Below, in pieces: positions 5,283 to 38,400 of a DNA stretch of 43,633 nt. The stretch is from a virus (Duplodnaviria > Heunggongvirae > Uroviricota > Caudoviricetes), in IMG/VR virus record IMGVR_UViG_2563366881_000003; one strand, 5' to 3'. Each line of letters starts with the position of its first letter. Within the stretch, counting starts at the first letter, position 1. The notes beneath the pieces were generated by a model, which was not told the origin of the DNA, did no database searches, and saw only the letters and a program-made list of their open reading frames with translations. Position numbers and translations under genes: made by a program.

Positions 5283-5458
5283 GTCGCATTCAGATATCTG
5301 TTGTCGTTAACAGAACCGAAACTCTTTCTCTTAAGCAATTCCTCTCTCGATGGCATTGGCTTTACGCGTTGGCGAATAATCATTTCTGCCGGAAGAATGC
5401 CGGGATTGTATGCAAGTCCTCTCATGGTAAATTCCTCAGTCATTACTGATAGCGCCAT
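5258..5458 (-). CDS. Small hypothetical protein (66 aa; start uncertain)
   Basis: ORF in operon context only. Confidence 0.3.
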
Positions 5459-5732
5459 AGCGTGAGCGGTAATTACGCAGGCGCGGGTCGATATATTCAG
5501 GGAAGTTGGTATATGTGGCTTTGCGGAATGGTCTCATTGCTGTTTCGTTTGTTCGGTCCTTCTCCTGTTTTAGCGCGAGTTGTATATCGCGTCTAAAATT
5601 GCGCTCCGCTTTTGTTTCTGGTGTCAGAGCAAGAAACGCGTCGAAATTGTTTTTGATATTTTCCAGCACCTCCGCCTTGGAGCTACCGGAGCAGTTGCGC
5701 GGGTCATCCGCACCATACAGAGGCGCTGGCAT
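5436..5732 (-). CDS. Hypothetical phage protein, 98 aa
   Basis: ORF in operon context only. Confidence 0.4.
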
Positions 5733-5755
5733 AATGGGAGCCTTATTTTCAGTAA

Positions 5756-6343
5756 TCAGAAAGGAGGGTAATCGTTCTGGCTGTAACCATAATCATCTGC
5801 ATGATTCTGGCTTACGTTTTTAGAGCGATTGTCTTTATCTTTGAGGCTGGCAACCATGTTGGCGATAGTTTCTGGTTGCTTGCCTTCTGCCTTTTCTTTA
5901 AGGGTTTGACCTGTTTGTGCAATAAACGGGATGCGTATTTCCATCTGGTAGCTGTCTGCGCCAGTCTTTTTGTTTGTGGTTAATACTTTCTGGAGCACTA
6001 ACCCGATTTTCTTTCCATGAAATTCAGGTGCAACAAATTTACTGGCGGAAACCATATGTTGTGTTAATTGTCCAATCCCGGCACACCCCATCATGGCGTG
6101 AACGACATTTGCGCCAAATTTGTTTTCCGTGCCGTCATTTTTCTGAACACAAACGCTAAGATACTGGATTTTACGTCCGTCGTCGGATTCTCCAGAAAAC
6201 TCAATAAATTTGGCTCCTTTTTCTGATTGCTTTAGTTCTGCTTCAGTAATGGTAATGATATGAGCGCCAGTTTCGTTAATAAAACCACCTTGCCCTGCGG
6301 TCAGTGCTGCTTCTTCGTTATAAGTAAAAATCACGTTGCTCAT
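5756..6343 (-). CDS. DUF669-type phage ssDNA-binding protein (Sak4-associated)
   Basis: 195 aa, immediately downstream of and overlapping the Sak4-like ATPase gene; a typical pairing. Confidence 0.6.
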   Translation of the reverse strand: MSNVIFTYNEEAALTAGQGGFINETGAHIITITEAELKQSEKGAKFIEFSGESDDGRKIQYLSVCVQKNDGTENKFGANVVHAMMGCAGIGQLTQHMVSASKFVAPEFHGKKIGLVLQKVLTTNKKTGADSYQMEIRIPFIAQTGQTLKEKAEGKQPETIANMVASLKDKDNRSKNVSQNHADDYGYSQNDYPPF

Positions 6344-7020
6344 GCGGCGTTTTCCTTAATTTGATGAACATTATTGATGCCGTAGTAATCACAAACAGTG
6401 GCATCGACGAAAGAGAGATCGTTATCAATCTCATTGGAATCAAACATTCCCATTGGGGATTTAACTGTGTCTGCACCGTTGTTTTTTGTGGTGAAAAAGA
6501 ACTGGTCATCACGGGTAAGGGTGCGAAGAACTATAGTAAACATGCCTTCGACAGTGATTTTCTCGTCCAGCATTTTGCCGATAGTTTTCATTTTCACGCG
6601 CCCAATAGGGGTTTCTTCGGTGTGCGCAAGAAAATAGACTCTCAGGTCATCAGGTGCATCCTGTGCAGCCTTAATCACCTCCCATGCGTGGCGTCCTATC
6701 TCAGTAAATTTATCAAATGATTTCTCTTCTGAGCGGCGCATAAACTCATTGCTCATCACATACTGGAAGTCATCAACAATAACGATTCTTTTCCCGTATT
6801 CGTGAGCACGCTTAATTACGGCAACTATTACGTCCCATTTGTCAGTGGTAACTACGGTTCCTTTTTTTGCTCTGGCATCCCATGCAAGCCAGTCTTTTGA
6901 TTTAAATGGTAGCGGCTTGCCTATTGGTTTTATAAGTATTGCTTCCTCTGGATTGATATTTCTCATGCTGGTTGATTTTCCGGTGCCAGACTCACCGAGT
7001 ATTAATGTCGCAGTTCCCAT
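6340..7020 (-). CDS. Sak4-like RecA-fold ATPase (phage recombination)
   Basis: Walker A GESGTGKS at the N-terminus, Walker B-like IVIVDD; 226 aa. Confidence 0.7.
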   Translation of the reverse strand: MGTATLILGESGTGKSTSMRNINPEEAILIKPIGKPLPFKSKDWLAWDARAKKGTVVTTDKWDVIVAVIKRAHEYGKRIVIVDDFQYVMSNEFMRRSEEKSFDKFTEIGRHAWEVIKAAQDAPDDLRVYFLAHTEETPIGRVKMKTIGKMLDEKITVEGMFTIVLRTLTRDDQFFFTTKNNGADTVKSPMGMFDSNEIDNDLSFVDATVCDYYGINNVHQIKENAA

Positions 7021-7028
7021 AATTCACC

Positions 7029-7229
7029 TCAGAATGGTAATTCGGATGGGGAGGAAAGAAACTCTCGCTCATTCATGCGCTCTCTTTGCGCCTGCCATAA
7101 ACAAAGTTGTTTCTTTGATTTATCTCCCGCTTTACGCCAGTAACGAGCCTCAGCAATGTGATATTCTCTTTTTAATCGACTTAACTCTGGAGTTTTCGCT
7201 AGTTCTACCGGAATCATTTTGACCTCCAT
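7029..7229 (-). CDS. Small hypothetical protein, 66 aa
   Basis: ORF only. Confidence 0.35.
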   Translation of the reverse strand: MEVKMIPVELAKTPELSRLKREYHIAEARYWRKAGDKSKKQLCLWQAQRERMNEREFLSSPSELPF

Positions 7230-7453
7230 TTTCGGTAGGCTTCTACGGCTTCACGAAACATCTTTTCATCGCCAATAAAAGTGGCGATAGTGAATTTAGT
7301 CTGGATAGCCATAAGTGTTTTATCCATTTTGGGGAACTCCTGGCTGATTAAGTACGTCGATGAGTCGTTTCCATCCGTCACGTAATTTACGTGTGATTCG
7401 CTCAAGTAAAGATTCGGAAGGGCAGCCAGCAACAGGCCACCCTGCAATGGCAT
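7214..7453 (-). CDS. Small hypothetical protein (79 aa, or 37 aa from internal ATG at 7327)
   Basis: ORF; internal ATG has a GGAG 9 nt upstream. Confidence 0.3.
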   Translation of the reverse strand: MPLQGGLLLAALPNLYLSESHVNYVTDGNDSSTYLISQEFPKMDKTLMAIQTKFTIATFIGDEKMFREAVEAYRKWRSK

Positions 7454-7541
7454 ATTGCATGGTGTGCTCCTTATTCATTTACACTTGAAATTGCTCCGTG
7501 TATTCACTCGTTGGAATGAATACACAGTGCTTATTCGCAGC

Positions 7542-7868
7542 CTACATAATCATTCCGGTTATTATTACCATTTCAATATCACTATCTTTCATAATGATTG
7601 GAGTTGAGTTATCAACTTTACTTTTACTCCATTTTCCTGCATCAGTTTTTACCGTTCCACAATAAGAAAGCCAATCATCATCACAATGTTCTGGATCGCT
7701 AATTCTAACAAGAACACGTGATAGTGCTTTTTCGATACTTTCATCACAATCAGCATTTATGTAATTGCCGTGAGACAATTTCAAATCGTTAACCTCATCT
7801 TCATTGGCATCAAAAATATAGATTTCAGTCGACTCTGGAACATTTTCATAAACCATTAAAATTTTCAT
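7542..7868 (-). CDS. Acidic hypothetical protein, 108 aa
   Basis: ORF with GGGG upstream of ATG; about 24 Asp/Glu against about 11 Lys/Arg. Confidence 0.5.
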   Translation of the reverse strand: MKILMVYENVPESTEIYIFDANEDEVNDLKLSHGNYINADCDESIEKALSRVLVRISDPEHCDDDWLSYCGTVKTDAGKWSKSKVDNSTPIIMKDSDIEMVIITGMIM

Positions 7869-7887
7869 TTTACCCCATATTGTTTAT

Positions 7888-7912
7888 GCCAAAAATAAAG
7901 GCCGACTATGCG
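7888..7912 (-). terminator. Rho-independent terminator after the membrane-protein gene (minus strand)
   Basis: Hairpin AGGCCG-catagt-CGGCCT followed by TTATTTTTGG on the minus strand. Confidence 0.55.
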
Positions 7913-7920
7913 GCCTGAAA

Positions 7921-8370
7921 TTACTTAACCAATGATGCTGCATATTCGATAAGGTAAAGCTTTGGAGCCAGCCAAATTTTTAACCAAGTCATATTGGTTA
8001 CTGCATCAATAATAAAAATCCCCCACAGAGTCAAAACTCCAACCAATGGCATGATAAGAAGATTAATATCACCTTTGCTATCCCAAACCATTGTCGGCCT
8101 GTATTTGGGATTTCCTTTCTCCCATGAATATCCTTCATCACCGATTTTACCTATCTCAACTCTCTGGCACTGCTTCTTCATAAACCAGAAAACCAGTGGG
8201 ATTGTTAGAATGGCTATTAATGTTTTAATCATACTGTCAACCATATTCCATAGCAGCAACTGATGAACAACATCAGGAATCTGTGCCTGGCTAAATGAAA
8301 CAGCCGCGTCTATTCCATTGCTGGCTTTTTGCAGTAGTTCTACGAGAATCTTGTTTGCTTGTTCTTCCAT
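7921..8370 (-). CDS. Membrane protein with two predicted TM helices, 149 aa
   Basis: Hydrophobic stretches LIAILTIPLVFWF and LLIMPLVGVLTLWGIFII; own terminator; divergent promoter region shared with the SieB-like gene. Confidence 0.55.
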   Translation of the reverse strand: MEEQANKILVELLQKASNGIDAAVSFSQAQIPDVVHQLLLWNMVDSMIKTLIAILTIPLVFWFMKKQCQRVEIGKIGDEGYSWEKGNPKYRPTMVWDSKGDINLLIMPLVGVLTLWGIFIIDAVTNMTWLKIWLAPKLYLIEYAASLVK

Positions 8371-8513
8371 ATATCACCTTAAATAGTGGATTGCGGTTGT
8401 AAAGATTGTGCCTGTCTTTTAACCACATCAGGCTCGGTGGTTCTCGTGTACCCCTACAGCGAGAAATCGGATAAACTCTATTCACCCCTACAGAGAGCAA
8501 AAGAGAAACGCCG

Positions 8514-9095
8514 ATGAACAACTCATGGTGGCAGGAACTAATGCATTTTTTCCTGCAAGGAATGACACTTAAACAGTTGATTCATATGCTAATCATCCTG
8601 ATCATATTGATTATTGTTATGCCGGTAAGCGTAAAAGAATGGATAAACCTGCATAATCCAGAAATCCTTCCTCATTACTGGATGTATTACATCCTGTTGT
8701 TTTGCGTTAGCTATGTGCTTAACGGCGTTGTTAATTCCGCTTATTACGCTGTGACTGAAAGAATTGAGGTATTCGCTGCTCAGAAGCGCAAATCTAAAGA
8801 AGAGAAATACGTGCAAGATTTGTTTGATTCGTTAACTCTTGGAGAAAGAGCGTATTTGGCACTCGCTGTAGTCGCTAATAACCAGCTACAAACGGAAAAG
8901 GGAAGCCCTGAAGCAATCTCATTGCTCGAAAAAGGGCTTCTTATTCGGATACCTTCTGCTACTGGATATCCTGAAATCGACCGTTTTGTTATCCCAGAAC
9001 GCTATAGAAATGAGTGCTACATTAGGTTTGCTGGGAAGAAAGACAGTCTTATGGATGAACTTATCGCTCAGGATAAGCACGGCAAAAACAAGTAA
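8514..9095 (+). CDS. SieB-like superinfection-exclusion membrane protein (candidate)
   Basis: 193 aa, two N-terminal TM helices plus soluble C-terminal domain; size, architecture and early-left location resemble SieB of lambda/P22; transcribed opposite to the leftward operon. Confidence 0.45.
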   Translation: MNNSWWQELMHFFLQGMTLKQLIHMLIILIILIIVMPVSVKEWINLHNPEILPHYWMYYILLFCVSYVLNGVVNSAYYAVTERIEVFAAQKRKSKEEKYVQDLFDSLTLGERAYLALAVVANNQLQTEKGSPEAISLLEKGLLIRIPSATGYPEIDRFVIPERYRNECYIRFAGKKDSLMDELIAQDKHGKNK

Positions 9096-9241
9096 TTAGC
9101 AAATTAATTTATCATCTCGCCGTCAGTTGTTTTGATTTCCGGTAGCCTGCCGCGTAAATGGCTACGTTTGGCAGGCACACAGCACCACCTTCAACTTCCT
9201 TCTAACGCGTTCCTGCAAGCGAAATGGCTCTTGAAACACGT

Positions 9242-9775
9242 TTACTGGCTCCGTCCATGATTTTCATGAAAGCCATATAGTGCATTGGCTTCTTTCCTTG
9301 CTTGTTTGGCATCATCTAAAAGTTTGAATGAGCCTAGGTATTTTCGTTTTCCATCCACAGTTATCGATGCAACATAAAACCCATGCTCTTTTCTTTCTTC
9401 AACACCTGTAACTCCAGTTGATGAAGATGATTTTAAAGGCATGTTTTTCATATTCTCTTTGAAAGAAACGCTTCTTAAATTGGAGATTCTGTTGTCATCC
9501 TTAACGCCGTTTATGTGATCAATCACATCAGGCCAGTAGCCATGCACGTAAAGCCATGCAAGTCTGTGAGACTTAAATTTTTTACCTCCAATATTTATTC
9601 TCAGATAACCCTTGTTGTCAGGTGAGCCAGCCTTTTTACCTGGATACTTCTTGTTCCACGTCAAGGCAGCTCTGTTATCCGCAAACAAATGCTTTGCTCT
9701 CGGCTTCCAATAAAAGTCACCACTCACAGGATTGTAATGAAGAATCTCCCTTACAGACACTTGAGTAAGATCCAC
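9242..9775 (-). CDS. HNH endonuclease with AP2-like DNA-binding domain (paralog 1)
   Basis: Motif HRLAWLYVHG...IDHINGVKDDNRISNLR, C-terminal GV(T/S)... AP2-like segment; paralogous to three other ORFs in the window. Confidence 0.8.
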   Translation of the reverse strand: MDLTQVSVREILHYNPVSGDFYWKPRAKHLFADNRAALTWNKKYPGKKAGSPDNKGYLRINIGGKKFKSHRLAWLYVHGYWPDVIDHINGVKDDNRISNLRSVSFKENMKNMPLKSSSSTGVTGVEERKEHGFYVASITVDGKRKYLGSFKLLDDAKQARKEANALYGFHENHGRSQ

Positions 9776-10017
9776 TTAAACCTCCTAACAAAAACACTTC
9801 AATAACCCTCCGGTTATGGAAATGTTCTTTTGTAGTGAGCAGCATTGCCGTTCATCCTGAACCCGCCGCGCTCCCGACGCATGGTTTAAAGACGCGCCGT
9901 TCGTCTATGGGCTTATGATGTACTTAAAGTTCATTAATGTAAAGTACAAATAGTACATTTTATGGGTATAAAAAGCTCACTACATCATAAGTTAGTGAAC
10001 TTTAAGGAAATTTATTT

Positions 10018-10725
10018 TTATCCGAATCGCTTGTAATCGATTGACTGCCTAATGAGGACTTTGGCTAGAATGTGAAGTTGCTCTTCTTCACCTTCTTCTA
10101 TGTACCATCGATCATAAGCGGCATTGTCAGAGATGACGGCAAGCCTGTTCTTTTGCATTTGCAGGCGCTTAACGTGCATTGTTTTCCCGTATACAAACAC
10201 ATAAATGCCATCGCCATCAAAATAGGTTATGGATACATCAACAAAGATCTCATCTCCCGGATTGATGGTTCCCTCCATGCTGTCACCGCGAACCGTGATG
10301 ACTTTTACGCTTTCCTGTGGCCTTCCATTAAATAAAATTCTTGCCTGCTCGGGCGTATATTCAATTGCTCTTATCTTTTCTATAAATTCATTGGAAACCA
10401 TGGTTCCTGGCCCGGCGCTCGCCTGAACATCCAATACATCAACACGATAAGAATCATTTGATCTTGATAGATGATTTACCGTGATACCGTCATAATCAGC
10501 ATAGCCATGCAGATATGCAGCAGTAGTTCCCAGCACCGAAGCCAGAGATTCCATCTTGTCTTTTCTTGGTATTGACTCCCCGTTGAACCATTTACTAATG
10601 GCTTTTGGTGTGACCTTAAGCCTGACAGCTAAATCAGCCTGCCTACCATGCAAAGGTAATCCCGCTTTATCACAGGCCAGCGCAAGCCTCTGCGAGAAAG
10701 TTTCACGCTCTTTCTGTTGAACCAT
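10018..10725 (-). CDS. cI: CI-type prophage repressor (HTH plus S24 LexA-like peptidase domain)
   Basis: C-terminal GDSMEGTINPGDEIFVD ... HVKRL (Ser/Lys dyad); start at MVQQKE (ATG 10725) lies inside an operator palindrome with no SD, consistent with a leaderless transcript. Confidence 0.8.
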   Translation of the reverse strand: MVQQKERETFSQRLALACDKAGLPLHGRQADLAVRLKVTPKAISKWFNGESIPRKDKMESLASVLGTTAAYLHGYADYDGITVNHLSRSNDSYRVDVLDVQASAGPGTMVSNEFIEKIRAIEYTPEQARILFNGRPQESVKVITVRGDSMEGTINPGDEIFVDVSITYFDGDGIYVFVYGKTMHVKRLQMQKNRLAVISDNAAYDRWYIEEGEEEQLHILAKVLIRQSIDYKRFG

Positions 10726-10733
10726 AAGTTCAA
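10717..10733. promoter_or_regulatory. Operator (OR3/OR2-like) palindrome TTGAACcataaGTTCAA overlapping the cI start codon
   Basis: 17-bp site with perfect 6-bp inverted half-sites; a second copy occurs 57 bp away. Confidence 0.6.
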
Positions 10734-10745
10734 CTATATTAGGTA

Positions 10746-10790
10746 TTGACTGTACTATCAGTTCCGTCATAATATGAACCATAAGTTCAC
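10746..10790 (+). promoter_or_regulatory. pR-like promoter (TTGACT-16/17-CATAAT) with OR1-like operator TGAACcataaGTTCA at 10775-10789
   Basis: Consensus-like sigma70 hexamers upstream of cro; operator palindrome overlaps the transcription start region. Confidence 0.6.
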
Positions 10791-10804
10791 CACAGGAGAG
10801 AAGC

Positions 10805-11035
10805 ATGAACGAAGTTACGTTTGGAGAAGTTATCAAATCCGTTCGAGTTTCTGTTGTGGCTGATGTTTGTGGACTTACGCCAAAAGCCATCTATAAGTGG
10901 CTTGAGCGTGGTTCTCTGCCGCGTACCGAGTTCACTGGTGAAACCGAATATGCGGATAAGATCGCCAAGGCATCAGGCGGCAAGTACTCAGCAGCACAGA
11001 TTCGCCGTATCGGTAAACAGCAGTTTGTTATGTAA
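10805..11035 (+). CDS. cro: Cro-like repressor
   Basis: 76-aa HTH-like protein divergent from cI, SD AGGAGAG upstream. Confidence 0.7.
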   Translation: MNEVTFGEVIKSVRVSVVADVCGLTPKAIYKWLERGSLPRTEFTGETEYADKIAKASGGKYSAAQIRRIGKQQFVM

Positions 11036-11156
11036 TAAAAATGTACTTTTAGTACCGAACGGCCCGGTATACGGTCGGGTGCCCGGCGTGGTCAAGGATG
11101 ACTGTCAATGGTGCACGATAAAAACCCAAATTATTTACCTATGGAGATAGTAAGAA

Positions 11157-11453
11157 ATGACACAAGCAAGTTACAGCAAGCCAACACAGCGAGAAATTGA
11201 TCGCGCTGAAACTGATTTACTCATCAACCTGTCAACGCTTACCCAGCGCGGTCTGGCAAAGATGATTGGCTGTCATGAATCGAAGATAAGCAGAACGGAC
11301 TGGAGATTTATTGCTTCGGTCTTGTGTGCTTTCGGAATGGCATCAGACATCAGTCCGATTAGCAGGGCTTTTAAGTATGCGCTTGATGAAATCACAAAGA
11401 AAAAATCCCCGGTGGCCGCCGGGGACTCTAAGCAAATTGATATGCAATTCTGA
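11157..11453 (+). CDS. cII: CII-like transcriptional activator
   Basis: C-terminus KKKSPVAAGDSKQIDMQF resembles recalled lambda CII C-terminus (KKRPAATERSEQIQMEF); HTH GLAKMIGCHESKISR. Confidence 0.8.
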   Translation: MTQASYSKPTQREIDRAETDLLINLSTLTQRGLAKMIGCHESKISRTDWRFIASVLCAFGMASDISPISRAFKYALDEITKKKSPVAAGDSKQIDMQF

Positions 11454-11478
11454 GGGAATTACTGGATCAATCCACAGG
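11398..11478 (-). ncRNA. oop-like antisense RNA (candidate)
   Basis: Minus-strand hairpin TCCCCGGcggccaCCGGGGA followed by T6 inside the 3-prime end of cII, with a CATAAT-like -10 about 77 nt upstream; mirrors lambda oop. Confidence 0.4.
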
Positions 11479-11485
11479 AGTCATT

Positions 11486-11647
11486 ATGACAAAACGTCGT
11501 AAGAAATACCAGGAAAAAGAAGAGATTCGACACCCTGATTCACCTGAGGGATTAGTGGTAGCCGCAGCAAATAACAGGGCGTTCGCAGAGCGCCTTGTTG
11601 GTGTTTACAGACTAGCCAAAGCAGGAGTGAAACATGGGCGTCGTTAA
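11486..11647 (+). CDS. Small basic protein, 53 aa, at the cII-O junction
   Basis: ATG with GGAG 7 nt upstream; translated by hand; absent from the 60-aa-minimum ORF track. Confidence 0.4.
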   Translation: MTKRRKKYQEKEEIRHPDSPEGLVVAAANNRAFAERLVGVYRLAKAGVKHGRR

Positions 11648-13837: not shown

Positions 13838-13909
13838 CCATCTACATCACTGAGCTTGTAACAGGCCTGCTGGTAATCGCAGGCCTTTTTATTTGGGGGA
13901 GGGTAAATC

Positions 13910-14614: not shown

Positions 14615-15025
14615 GTGAAGCAAACAATCTTCCTCAGAACTAAGCAACAACAGTAAGCCGCAATCAACGCCATCCTCGCAACACCACTCGATAAAGACAA
14701 GCCAGTCACCATCCGCATTACTGACTACAAGCGCAACCTTGACCAGAACGCAAAATTTCACGCGATGGTCGCAGATATCGCCAGGCAAGTTCAGTGGCGC
14801 GATAAATGGTTAAAACCAGAACAATGGAAGGTTTTGTTGATAAGCGGTCATGCAGTGGCAACAAAGCAGGAAGCTGATGTTTTGCCCGGGCTTGAAGGCG
14901 AATACGTCAACATTCGCGAAAGCAGCGCGCAGATGAGTGTGAAGCGTATGGCAAGTCTGATTGAGTACACGACAGCATGGGCTATTGGTCAGGGTGTCAG
15001 ATTTACCGACAGGAGGTACGAATGA
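14615..15025 (+). pseudogene. ninB: ninB (recombination protein NinB/Orf) interrupted by an in-frame TAA at 14654-14656
   Basis: GTG 14615 with AGGAG upstream encodes MKQTIFLRTKQQQ, then TAA, then the same frame continues AAINAILATPLDKDK...NLDQNAKFHAMVADIARQVQWRDKWL matching recalled lambda NinB across the stop; codons checked by hand. Confidence 0.7.
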
Positions 15026-15198
15026 GACGACAGCGACGAAGTTTCACCGACATCATCTGCGAAAACTGCAAATACCTTCCAACGAAACGCTCCAGAAATA
15101 AACGCAAGCCAATCCCAAAAGAATCTGACGTAAAAACCTTCAACTACACGGCTCACCTGTGGGATATCCGGTGGCTAAGACATCGTGCGAGGAAATGA
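15022..15198 (+). CDS. NinD/NinE-like small basic protein
   Basis: 58 aa [22 protein letters not shown]...; start overlaps ninB stop (ATGA). Confidence 0.55.
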
Positions 15199-16459: not shown

Positions 16460-16749
16460 TGGCTAATCTACGCAAAGAAGCACGCGGCAGAGAATGCCAG
16501 GTACGTATTTACGGCGTATGCAATGGCAATCCTGAAACTACAGTTCTGGCACATTACCGGATGGCTGGAATTTGCGGAACGGGAATGAAGCCTGACGACC
16601 TGATCGGCGCATGGGCTTGTAGCGCGTGTCACGATGAAATCGACCGACGCACCTATAATCTCGACAACAAAGACGCCAGACTTTACCACCTCGAAGGCGT
16701 GATCAGGACGCAGGCGATACTGCTGAAGGAGGGGAAGATTAAGTCATGA
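16459..16749 (+). CDS. DUF1364 / YbcO-like putative zinc-binding nuclease
   Basis: 96 aa, motif ARGRECQVRIYGVCNGNPETTVLAH...CSACHDEIDRR recalled from DLP12 YbcO. Confidence 0.6.
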   Translation: MANLRKEARGRECQVRIYGVCNGNPETTVLAHYRMAGICGTGMKPDDLIGAWACSACHDEIDRRTYNLDNKDARLYHLEGVIRTQAILLKEGKIKS

Positions 16750-17270
16750 ACGGTAAAAGATATCCAACACAAAAAGAAATCAATGAATTGTATGAATATA
16801 ATAGCGAAACAGGTTTGTTTATATACAAGAGAAGAGAAAGTGTAAGAGAGTGCTGGAATTCAACATATGCCGGTAAGATTGCTGGTTCTATAGATGAAAA
16901 AGGATACGTTCGTATATCTGTAAATAAAAAAGTTTGTCGAGCTCATAGAATCGCATGGATATCCTTTTATGGAAGTGAACCTGATGGGGAAATTGACCAC
17001 ATAAATGGAGTTAAAAGCGATAACAGAATATGCAATTTGCGCGTTGTAGATGATAAACAGAACTCAAGGAACAGAAAAAAGCCTATTAATAATCGCTCTG
17101 GAGTAATGGGGGTTGCCTACTATAAGAAGAATAAAAAGTGGGGCGCATATATAAACAGTGATAATAAAAAGATATTTCTTGGATTATACGATGACATATC
17201 TCTAGCCGTTAATGCCAGAAAATTGGCGGAATCACGATTGGGGTATCACCATAATCATGGGAGAGGATAA
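16746..17270 (+). CDS. HNH endonuclease with AP2-like domain (paralog 2)
   Basis: HRIAWISFYG...IDHINGVKSDNRICNLR; inserted between the ybcO-like gene and rusA. Confidence 0.8.
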   Translation: MNGKRYPTQKEINELYEYNSETGLFIYKRRESVRECWNSTYAGKIAGSIDEKGYVRISVNKKVCRAHRIAWISFYGSEPDGEIDHINGVKSDNRICNLRVVDDKQNSRNRKKPINNRSGVMGVAYYKKNKKWGAYINSDNKKIFLGLYDDISLAVNARKLAESRLGYHHNHGRG

Positions 17271-28836: not shown

Positions 28837-28858
28837 GCGGGGGTTACCCCGCCTTTTT
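28837..28858. terminator. Bidirectional hairpin terminator between coat gene and the minus-strand HNH gene
   Basis: GGCGGGGG-ttac-CCCCGCC followed by T5. Confidence 0.6.
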
Positions 28859-29350
28859 CTTGATTATTTCGCAGCAAGCATCGAATTTGTTATCGAAATA
28901 TCCCAGATGGATTGCTTTTCCGTTAGCAAATGATTTGGCGCGCCATTTGTACACGTTTTTGACCTTCACATAGTAAAGGCCAGCAATGCCGTATTTGTTA
29001 TTTTTATAAATCGAGGTTCCTTTAACTCGGTTAAGTTGATTTTGGCGACTGCTAACGATTCGCAGATTAGAGATCCTGTTATCAAGTGGGTTTCCGTTGA
29101 TGTGGTCGATTATCCCCTCAGGGTGCTCTCGATAGAAAAGCAGCCAAGCGATTCTGTGCGCCTGGTAATGCACCTTCTTGTACTGAACTTTCAGTCGGGT
29201 GTAATTGTTGCCTGCCTTGTGTTCGAAGGTGGCTACCTTACCTTTTGTCAGGTGCCTGACAGATGCGTTTATCTTGTACTTTATCTCTCCCGTGTCTGGA
29301 GAGTATTCAAACATTTCATCAGCTTGCTCAAAGGTAATCATGTTATTCAC
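28844..29350 (-). CDS. HNH endonuclease with AP2-like domain (paralog 4), antisense within the head operon
   Basis: HRIAWLLFYR...IDHINGNPLDNRISNLR. Confidence 0.8.
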   Translation of the reverse strand: MNNMITFEQADEMFEYSPDTGEIKYKINASVRHLTKGKVATFEHKAGNNYTRLKVQYKKVHYQAHRIAWLLFYREHPEGIIDHINGNPLDNRISNLRIVSSRQNQLNRVKGTSIYKNNKYGIAGLYYVKVKNVYKWRAKSFANGKAIHLGYFDNKFDACCEIIKKKAG

Positions 29351-38323: not shown

Positions 38324-38324
38324 A

Positions 38325-38400
38325 GTTGAAGCCCCAACTGCGGGAACAGTCAGGGCTTCTGTTGTCAGTAAATCCGTGGAGAAAAACCAACATGAATAGT
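38325..38400 (-). ncRNA. sar-like antisense RNA covering the ant ribosome-binding region (candidate)
   Basis: Arc-ant intercistronic hairpin GAAGCCC...GGGCTTC at 38330-38361; P22 has sar here. Confidence 0.35.

Follow-up and report, generated by a model that had tools for sequence, protein, structure and literature searches.

How a lambdoid phage transcribes its early operons when no N gene stands at the head of the left one is the question raised by this locus. In lambda, P22 and phi21, N or gp24 together with nut sites follows the same logic as the locus described here, with a determinant right after pL and right after cro that lets polymerase pass the terminators before cIII and the recombination genes on the left and before Q on the right. 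The window (the whole 43.6-kb stretch of DNA analyzed) has an HNH endonuclease gene in the slot held by N in lambda and by nun in HK022, and the first-pass annotation had offered two explanations, RNA-based antitermination like that of HK022 put or an early operon poor in terminators. Our analyses bear out the former: the leader of the pL transcript is HK022 putL and an identical putR follows cro. On this sequence evidence we put the probability that the phage uses HK022 put RNA in place of N at roughly 0.93.

Megablast of positions 9096-10017 against phage records divided the region into three pieces. The first, 9833-10017, is 98.9% identical to HK022, O276 and HK75, and the features annotated there in the matched records are the oL operators, the pL -35 and -10 elements and "putL: antiterminator RNA." The second, 9189-9911, is 97.9% identical to Salmonella phage UPF_BP1, covering an HNH endonuclease gene and its putL, and the third, 9096-9181, is 96-100% identical to the 3' ends of N genes from Stx and lambda-like phages. 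Over a longer span, 9833-11493 is 99.0% identical to O276 (a lambda-HK022 hybrid) and 9833-11218 is 99.5% identical to the HK022 record X16093. As judged by these alignments, the window contains a complete HK022 immunity region, comprising putL, pL/oL, cI, pRM/oR/pR, cro, putR and cII, with the following features:

9835-9908, minus strand: putL antiterminator RNA, nucleotide n lying at 9909-n (annotated in O276 and HK75; covariance model score 102.8 bits)
9915-9943, minus strand: pL promoter, with -35 TTTACA at 9938-9943, -10 CATCAT at 9915-9920 and start at 9908
9919-9957: oL operators, the "oL pot. repressor binding sites" of X16093
9972-10003, minus strand: hairpin and U run just after the cI stop (fold of −11.6 kcal/mol, z −2.77)
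10018-10725, minus strand: cI repressor of the HK022 type (Peptidase_S24 and HTH_3; maps onto O276/HK022 CI)
10746-10773, plus strand: pR promoter, TTGACT-16-CATAAT, from a promoter scan and coinciding with the O276 annotation of HK022 pR (-10 at 10768-10773)
10805-11035, plus strand: cro of the HK022 type (maps onto the annotated HK022 Cro)
11051-11118, plus strand: putR antiterminator RNA (annotated core 11060-11116), 100% identical to HK022/O276 putR

The oL operators differ from those of HK022 at one base. The O276 annotation and a separate promoter scan give the same site for pL, and its +1 (9908) was placed by matching the nucleotide numbering of the HK022 cryo-EM study (PMC9378689). The remainder of the genome is P22/HK620/CUS-3-like, not HK022-like, and a lambda-like early-left region is joined to a P22-like immI region.

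Nucleotides +1 to +73 of putL are 100% identical to HK022 putL, and the homology to HK022 stops exactly at nucleotide 74, which is C here and U in HK022. On the transcribed strand, the pL start leads directly into putL, and putR falls between cro and cII, about 270 nt past the pR start, in agreement with PMC9378689. In the cryo-EM structure put is a V-shaped two-stem RNA, with stem I formed by 3-7/15-19 and 10-14/30-34 and stem II by 36-72 (PMC9378689). Our numbering reproduces every landmark of that work: A3-G7/C15-U19, A9-G35, G12-U32, the C26-G29 bulge, the -10-like NANNAT at +23 to +28 that ends at U28, the unpaired U68 and the last paired base, C72 (position 9837). Pause suppression in HK022 was mapped 21 nt after stem II; this property may not carry over, as nucleotide 74 and the downstream context differ.

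The first-pass annotation had suggested folding the minus-strand leader, and had held that a leader without conserved structure would speak against put. Single-sequence folding gave no support, as neither putL (z −0.68) nor putR (z +0.10) folded better than shuffles and stem I, at minimum energy, is predicted in a form other than that seen by cryo-EM. Poor z scores are expected of a fold held together by a pseudoknotted stem I, a triplex and non-canonical pairs. Conservation of the structure is clear from relatives. A put-core pattern scan of IMG/VR yielded 119 stretches with 32 distinct putL and 32 distinct putR sequences, and many of these stretches carry a divergent putL/putR pair 1.2-2 kb apart. 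Checked against the cryo-EM structure, stem I pseudoknot included, 20 distinct putL variants pair in 96.5% of cells, and at seven pairs both partners have changed (such as A5-U17 to U-A, A37-U71 to U-A or C-G, G40-C67 to U-A or C-G, and U48-A58 to C-G). No shuffle out of 500 reached the observed values, and slid 3' partners pair in only 21-53%. A covariance model built from putL variants only and run on the 43.6-kb window with filters off scored putL at 102.8 bits, by construction, and putR, which was outside the training set, at 44.9 bits (E = 3e-8). It found no third put element in the window, the next match having an E value of 0.66; there are exactly two, at HK022's positions. The evidence that decides for put is homology and covariation, not thermodynamics.

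Rfam 15 returned no put-like family, either at the gathering threshold over the whole window or at E ≤ 1 over 9000-11300; since Rfam has no put model, this absence is uninformative. Above the gathering score it found the lambda cIII thermoregulator (7415-7473, minus strand, 88.5 bits) and the P22 sar antisense RNA (38324-38391, minus strand, 92.3 bits).

The inverted repeats reported earlier all exist. That at 9850-9862, GTTCATCCTGAAC, is putL stem II, its tip reading GUUCAGGAUGAAC on the minus strand (9862-9850), and the earlier-noted GTTCAtccTGAAC repeat corresponds to putL G47-C59, the tip of the same stem. TGTACTTAAAG at 9919-9929 and TAAAGTACA at 9940-9948 are oL operators flanking the pL -35. 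GCCTGCC-18 nt-GGCAGGC, first given as 9137-9169, in fact lies eight bases to the right, at 9145-9176, within the N remnant described below and over its codons for CLP...AAG. As a terminator it was rejected: its loop is 18 nt, neither strand has a U run, and it lies in coding sequence common to intact N genes.

Downstream of putL the leader contains another structure:

9790-9829, minus strand: long A/U-flanked hairpin between putL and the HNH ribosome-binding site (−19.8 kcal/mol, z −4.27)

None of 200 shuffles folds as well. Two put loci that lack the HNH gene (L072 and L107) retain this hairpin with a compensatory change of C-G to U-A (ATAACC/GGTTAT to ATAACT/AGTTAT), ruling it out as part of an HNH cassette; the hairpin thus belongs to this put leader type and not to the HNH gene, and may act as a weak terminator or an RNase III-type processing site. 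The terminator scan did not call it (too few G-C pairs), and Rfam gave only a sub-threshold, chance miRNA match at 9788-9829. The predicted hairpin and U run just after the cI stop would probably terminate the pRM/cI transcript and keep pRM RNA out of pL/putL.

The slot downstream of pL, and the DNA up to the convergent neighbor of the pL transcript, contain the following:

9242-9775, minus strand: HNH_3 endonuclease gene (Pfam HNH_3 and PHROG 99), in the slot of nun in HK022 and of N in lambda
9112-9240, minus strand: dead 3' remnant of an N/gp24-type gene, residues ~47-90, with TAG at 9202-9204 and the stop TGA at 9112-9114
8514-9095, plus strand: sieB, superinfection exclusion B (Pfam SieB, E = 3.6e-23), convergent with the pL transcript

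As first described, the HNH gene is the first ORF leftward after cI and pL. It starts with GTG, preceded by AGGAGG at 9781-9786, and has the HNH_3 catalytic domain (PF13392 at residues 70-109, E = 2.7e-15), with a match to PHROG 99 "HNH endonuclease" at E = 7e-66. Salmonella phage UPF_BP1 and E. coli prophages likewise carry copies of 97-100% identity downstream of putL. The gene is a passenger in the emptied N slot. With three other HNH_3 paralogs, which share 32-43% identity with the gene in the putL slot, the free-standing HNH genes number four in 43.6 kb:

16746-17270, plus strand: HNH_3 paralog in the nin region, before rusA
18528-19040, plus strand: HNH_3 paralog immediately after Q/pR'/tR'
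28844-29350, minus strand: HNH_3 paralog after the coat gene, on the opposite strand

The sieB layout is the same in VT1-Sakai and HK140. Between ORF 7921-8370 and sieB, the DNA at about 8386-8470 is conserved in 19 put-bearing loci; it holds a spurious ORF cluster with "RCRGTREPPSLMWLKDRH" and has no Rfam or PHROG match.

The earlier statement that an N-like antiterminator gene is missing stands for intact genes: across the whole window, tblastn, an arginine-rich scan and PHROGs turned up none of the N, gp24 or Nun type. Queries for tblastn were the N proteins of VT1-Sakai, HK140 and lambda, HK022 Nun and a fragment of the gp24 type taken from UPF_BP1. The sole significant match in the window was at 9240-9115 (E about 1e-13) and covered only N residues 47-90, and the best Nun match had an E value of 0.56 and lay elsewhere in the window, not downstream of putL. 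The claim that the early-left operon has no arginine-rich ORF also held, as a six-frame scan for arginine-rich 12-mers found in its leftward ORFs only the N terminus of Int (2495-2460). The plus-strand match at 15001-15036 belongs to a small nin-region ORF, presumably NinE and not N. PHROGs placed no other early-left ORF in an antiterminator family; their assignments were Sak4-like annealing protein, SSB, Abc2, recombinase-associated protein or unknown families.

What had been overlooked is the remnant. Directly past the HNH stop, the minus strand encodes RVSRAISLAGTR, a stop, KEVEGGAVCLPNVAIYAAGYRKSKQLTAR and a second stop, and this translation aligns with residues 47-90 of phi21/HK140-type N. 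With the internal stop read as Q, the remnant matches profile positions 113-157 of 176 in PHROG 271 "anti-termination protein N-like" (E = 2.7e-14). Its 3' part, 9096-9177, is 100% identical to the 3' end of intact VT1-Sakai N, and the PGAP annotation of E. coli GPEC1446 records the remnant as a pseudogene, an incomplete "transcriptional antitermination N peptide." A neighboring N- or gp24-like ORF had been named as evidence that would count against put; the only one found is truncated, interrupted by a stop and devoid of the arginine-rich RNA-binding end, and therefore does not refute the put reading. No complete N ORF with an N-terminal arginine-rich motif serves as an early pL gene, only residues ~47-90 being present. 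Neither the pL nor the pR leader has a boxA (YGCTCTT(T)A), as a nut system would; the only two occurrences of the consensus in the window are one inside cI, on the plus strand at 10366, and one on the minus strand at 19111. In annotation, the ORF stump at 9112-9240 should be named an N pseudogene.

Such stumps are common. Many IMG/VR put loci, with or without HNH, retain the C-terminal part of an N gene downstream of putL, and several N types are represented; HK022 itself has such a stump between putL and nun, and in locus L003 one lies 52-153 nt after putL. Most copies of the window's own N type carry the TAG, and across put loci a few stumps are intact small ORFs; the stumps of the window's type look like decaying remnants or recombination scars. 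One locus (L042) has a complete N-like ORF of 92 aa, basic near its N terminus, 626-904 nt downstream of putL; this may be a phage with both put and N.

In HK022, put RNA on the β' zinc-binding domain of RNA polymerase makes the enzyme resist pausing and terminators, intrinsic as well as Rho-dependent, over at least 10 kb without a phage protein, and rpoC mutations in that domain block put (PMC9378689). Given an E. coli host and put RNAs identical in sequence to those of HK022, we infer polymerase binding and terminator read-through by the same mechanism in this phage. Transcription from pL would start at 9908 and its first 73 nt, putL, would fold as the V-shaped two-stem RNA, while the pR transcript would yield the related putR about 270 nt downstream, after cro. 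Each nascent put RNA would bind the β' zinc-binding domain of its own RNA polymerase and stay bound, and the polymerase, held in a non-swiveled, pause-resistant state, would pass intrinsic and Rho-dependent terminators for many kilobases without the help of a phage protein. The HNH protein would be the product of the first cistron, and the first protein made, from the put-modified pL transcript. Because put acts without a phage protein, such a phage needs no N.

Candidate intrinsic terminators were found in both early operons:

7899-7916, minus strand: predicted intrinsic terminator of the early-left operon, AGGCCG...CGGCCU followed by UUUAUUUUU (−9.7 kcal/mol), upstream of cIII/kil and the recombination genes
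13863-13886, plus strand: predicted strong intrinsic terminator of the early-right operon, with an 8-bp GC-rich stem followed by UUUUUAUUU (−15.7 kcal/mol), after the replication genes and before nin/Q

These two predictions, each a GC stem with a U run, run counter to the second explanation offered earlier, by which the phage, having few terminators in its early operons, could do without antitermination and the put sequences would play no part. A consensus scan does show few minus-strand terminator-like sites in 5300-9800, and Rho-dependent sites fall outside the reach of such predictions. However, the put elements are perfectly intact on both sides of the immunity region, and we consider a terminator-poor phage very improbable. 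We likewise regard it as highly unlikely that an N-like protein acts after all, whether encoded elsewhere or made as a short peptide from the N 3' remnant that aids the put-modified polymerase. The remnant has a candidate start (GTG 9180, with AAGGTGG upstream), and C-terminal N remnants have been kept after putL in many put loci with or without HNH, a few as intact ORFs. Yet this remnant lacks the arginine-rich and NusA-binding parts and is interrupted by an in-frame TAG here and in most close relatives, the leaders have no boxA, the window has no other N or Nun match, and put works without phage proteins (PMC9378689).

The position of the HNH gene, first after pL in the place of N or nun, and the fact that HNH genes are the commonest occupants of this slot could suggest that the HNH protein is not a selfish nuclease but has taken over regulation at pL, by antitermination or Nun-like exclusion. 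The protein, however, is an ordinary HNH_3 family member with three paralogs at unrelated positions in the same genome, the slot HNH genes come from several deep lineages, as expected of mobile nucleases, and put phages without any HNH exist (HK022, L072 and L107). A regulatory role for HNH is extremely unlikely. Put RNA in place of N remains our preferred reading.

To describe what occupies the slot in other phages, we surveyed 95 putL-bearing stretches with enough downstream sequence, a redundant set that includes HK022, O276 and HK75. The first gene after putL belongs to the HNH family in 23 of the 95 loci, making it the commonest occupant, with 27-100% identity to the window copy; other loci have a 77-aa zinc-finger-like protein (16 loci), a 157-aa protein (15 loci), a Nun-family protein (10 loci) or other genes. 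Among 5,426 complete E. coli genomes, 37 carry putL, and the HNH arrangement described here is found, at ≥80% coverage, in six of the 37; putL was found in 13 of 50,697 phage records. The putL-HNH arrangement is thus uncommon but not unique. In a neighbor-joining tree (no bootstrap), the slot HNH genes of other loci are not monophyletic relative to the window paralogs, and the slot therefore seems to have been colonized several times, as expected of selfish nucleases.

A more specific idea is that the slot after putL is a homing site for free-standing HNH genes, whose nucleases would attack co-infecting lambdoid phages at put alleles without an HNH gene or at alleles of the N type, with the N stump and putL serving as homology arms. 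At least three deep HNH lineages (27-60% mutual identity) are found in the slot across the 23 of 95 put-bearing loci, usually beside an N 3' stump, and the four HNH paralogs in the window, the several deep slot lineages and the HNH-less alleles L072 and L107 are circumstantial evidence for homing. We nonetheless consider it unlikely. Loci L072 and L107 do not provide a simple "empty site," as they have no HNH but their N stump is also shorter, so that no clean insertion is seen. If homing did occur, the put-HNH module would spread with it, and phages now dependent on N would come to rely on RNA alone for antitermination.

The closest known system is HK022 putL/putR itself (cryo-EM, Hwang et al. 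2022, PMC9378689), with which the window shares the RNAs, promoters, operators, cI, cro, cII and put positions. From nucleotide 74 on the two part: HK022 has the nun promoter, nun and IS903, whereas the window has the conserved hairpin, HNH and the N stump. The order putL, hairpin, HNH, N/gp24 stump is shared, at 97.9-99.8% identity, with UPF_BP1 and the E. coli prophages GPEC1446, S1-CAM-01-C and CUVET21-PYO5, although UPF_BP1 has a different repressor/operator set and its stump, which belongs to another N type, is an uninterrupted ORF of 58 codons. Nun, which takes the slot downstream of putL in HK022, O276, HK75 and about 10 IMG/VR loci, is missing here. Compared with lambda N, P22 gp24 and phi21 N, the window has neither an N protein nor boxA, and by analogy with HK022 the RNA would act alone. 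Another cis-acting processive antiterminator RNA is Bacillus EAR, where nascent RNA makes RNA polymerase terminator-resistant; it is unrelated to put in sequence.

The HK022 putL and putR RNAs reportedly go back to King et al. in 1996 and later work. The put mechanism is already known and is present here in sequence-identical form; it explains why this lambdoid prophage has no N, through the protein-free mechanism of HK022, which is rare. A literature search on put together with HNH found nothing relevant beyond PMC9378689. What is modestly new is ecological only, namely the replacement of nun by HNH, the multi-lineage HNH genes that are commonest in the put slot and the persistent N stumps. 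Both putL and putR should be marked in annotation, as they are easily missed with no Rfam model. Unannotated putL elements of 95.6-97.1% identity were also found outside E. coli phages, in FQ482085 (Erwinia phage phiEt88), OZ035745 (Wanchaivirus PDP110P2) and KX776161 (Salmonella UPF_BP1).
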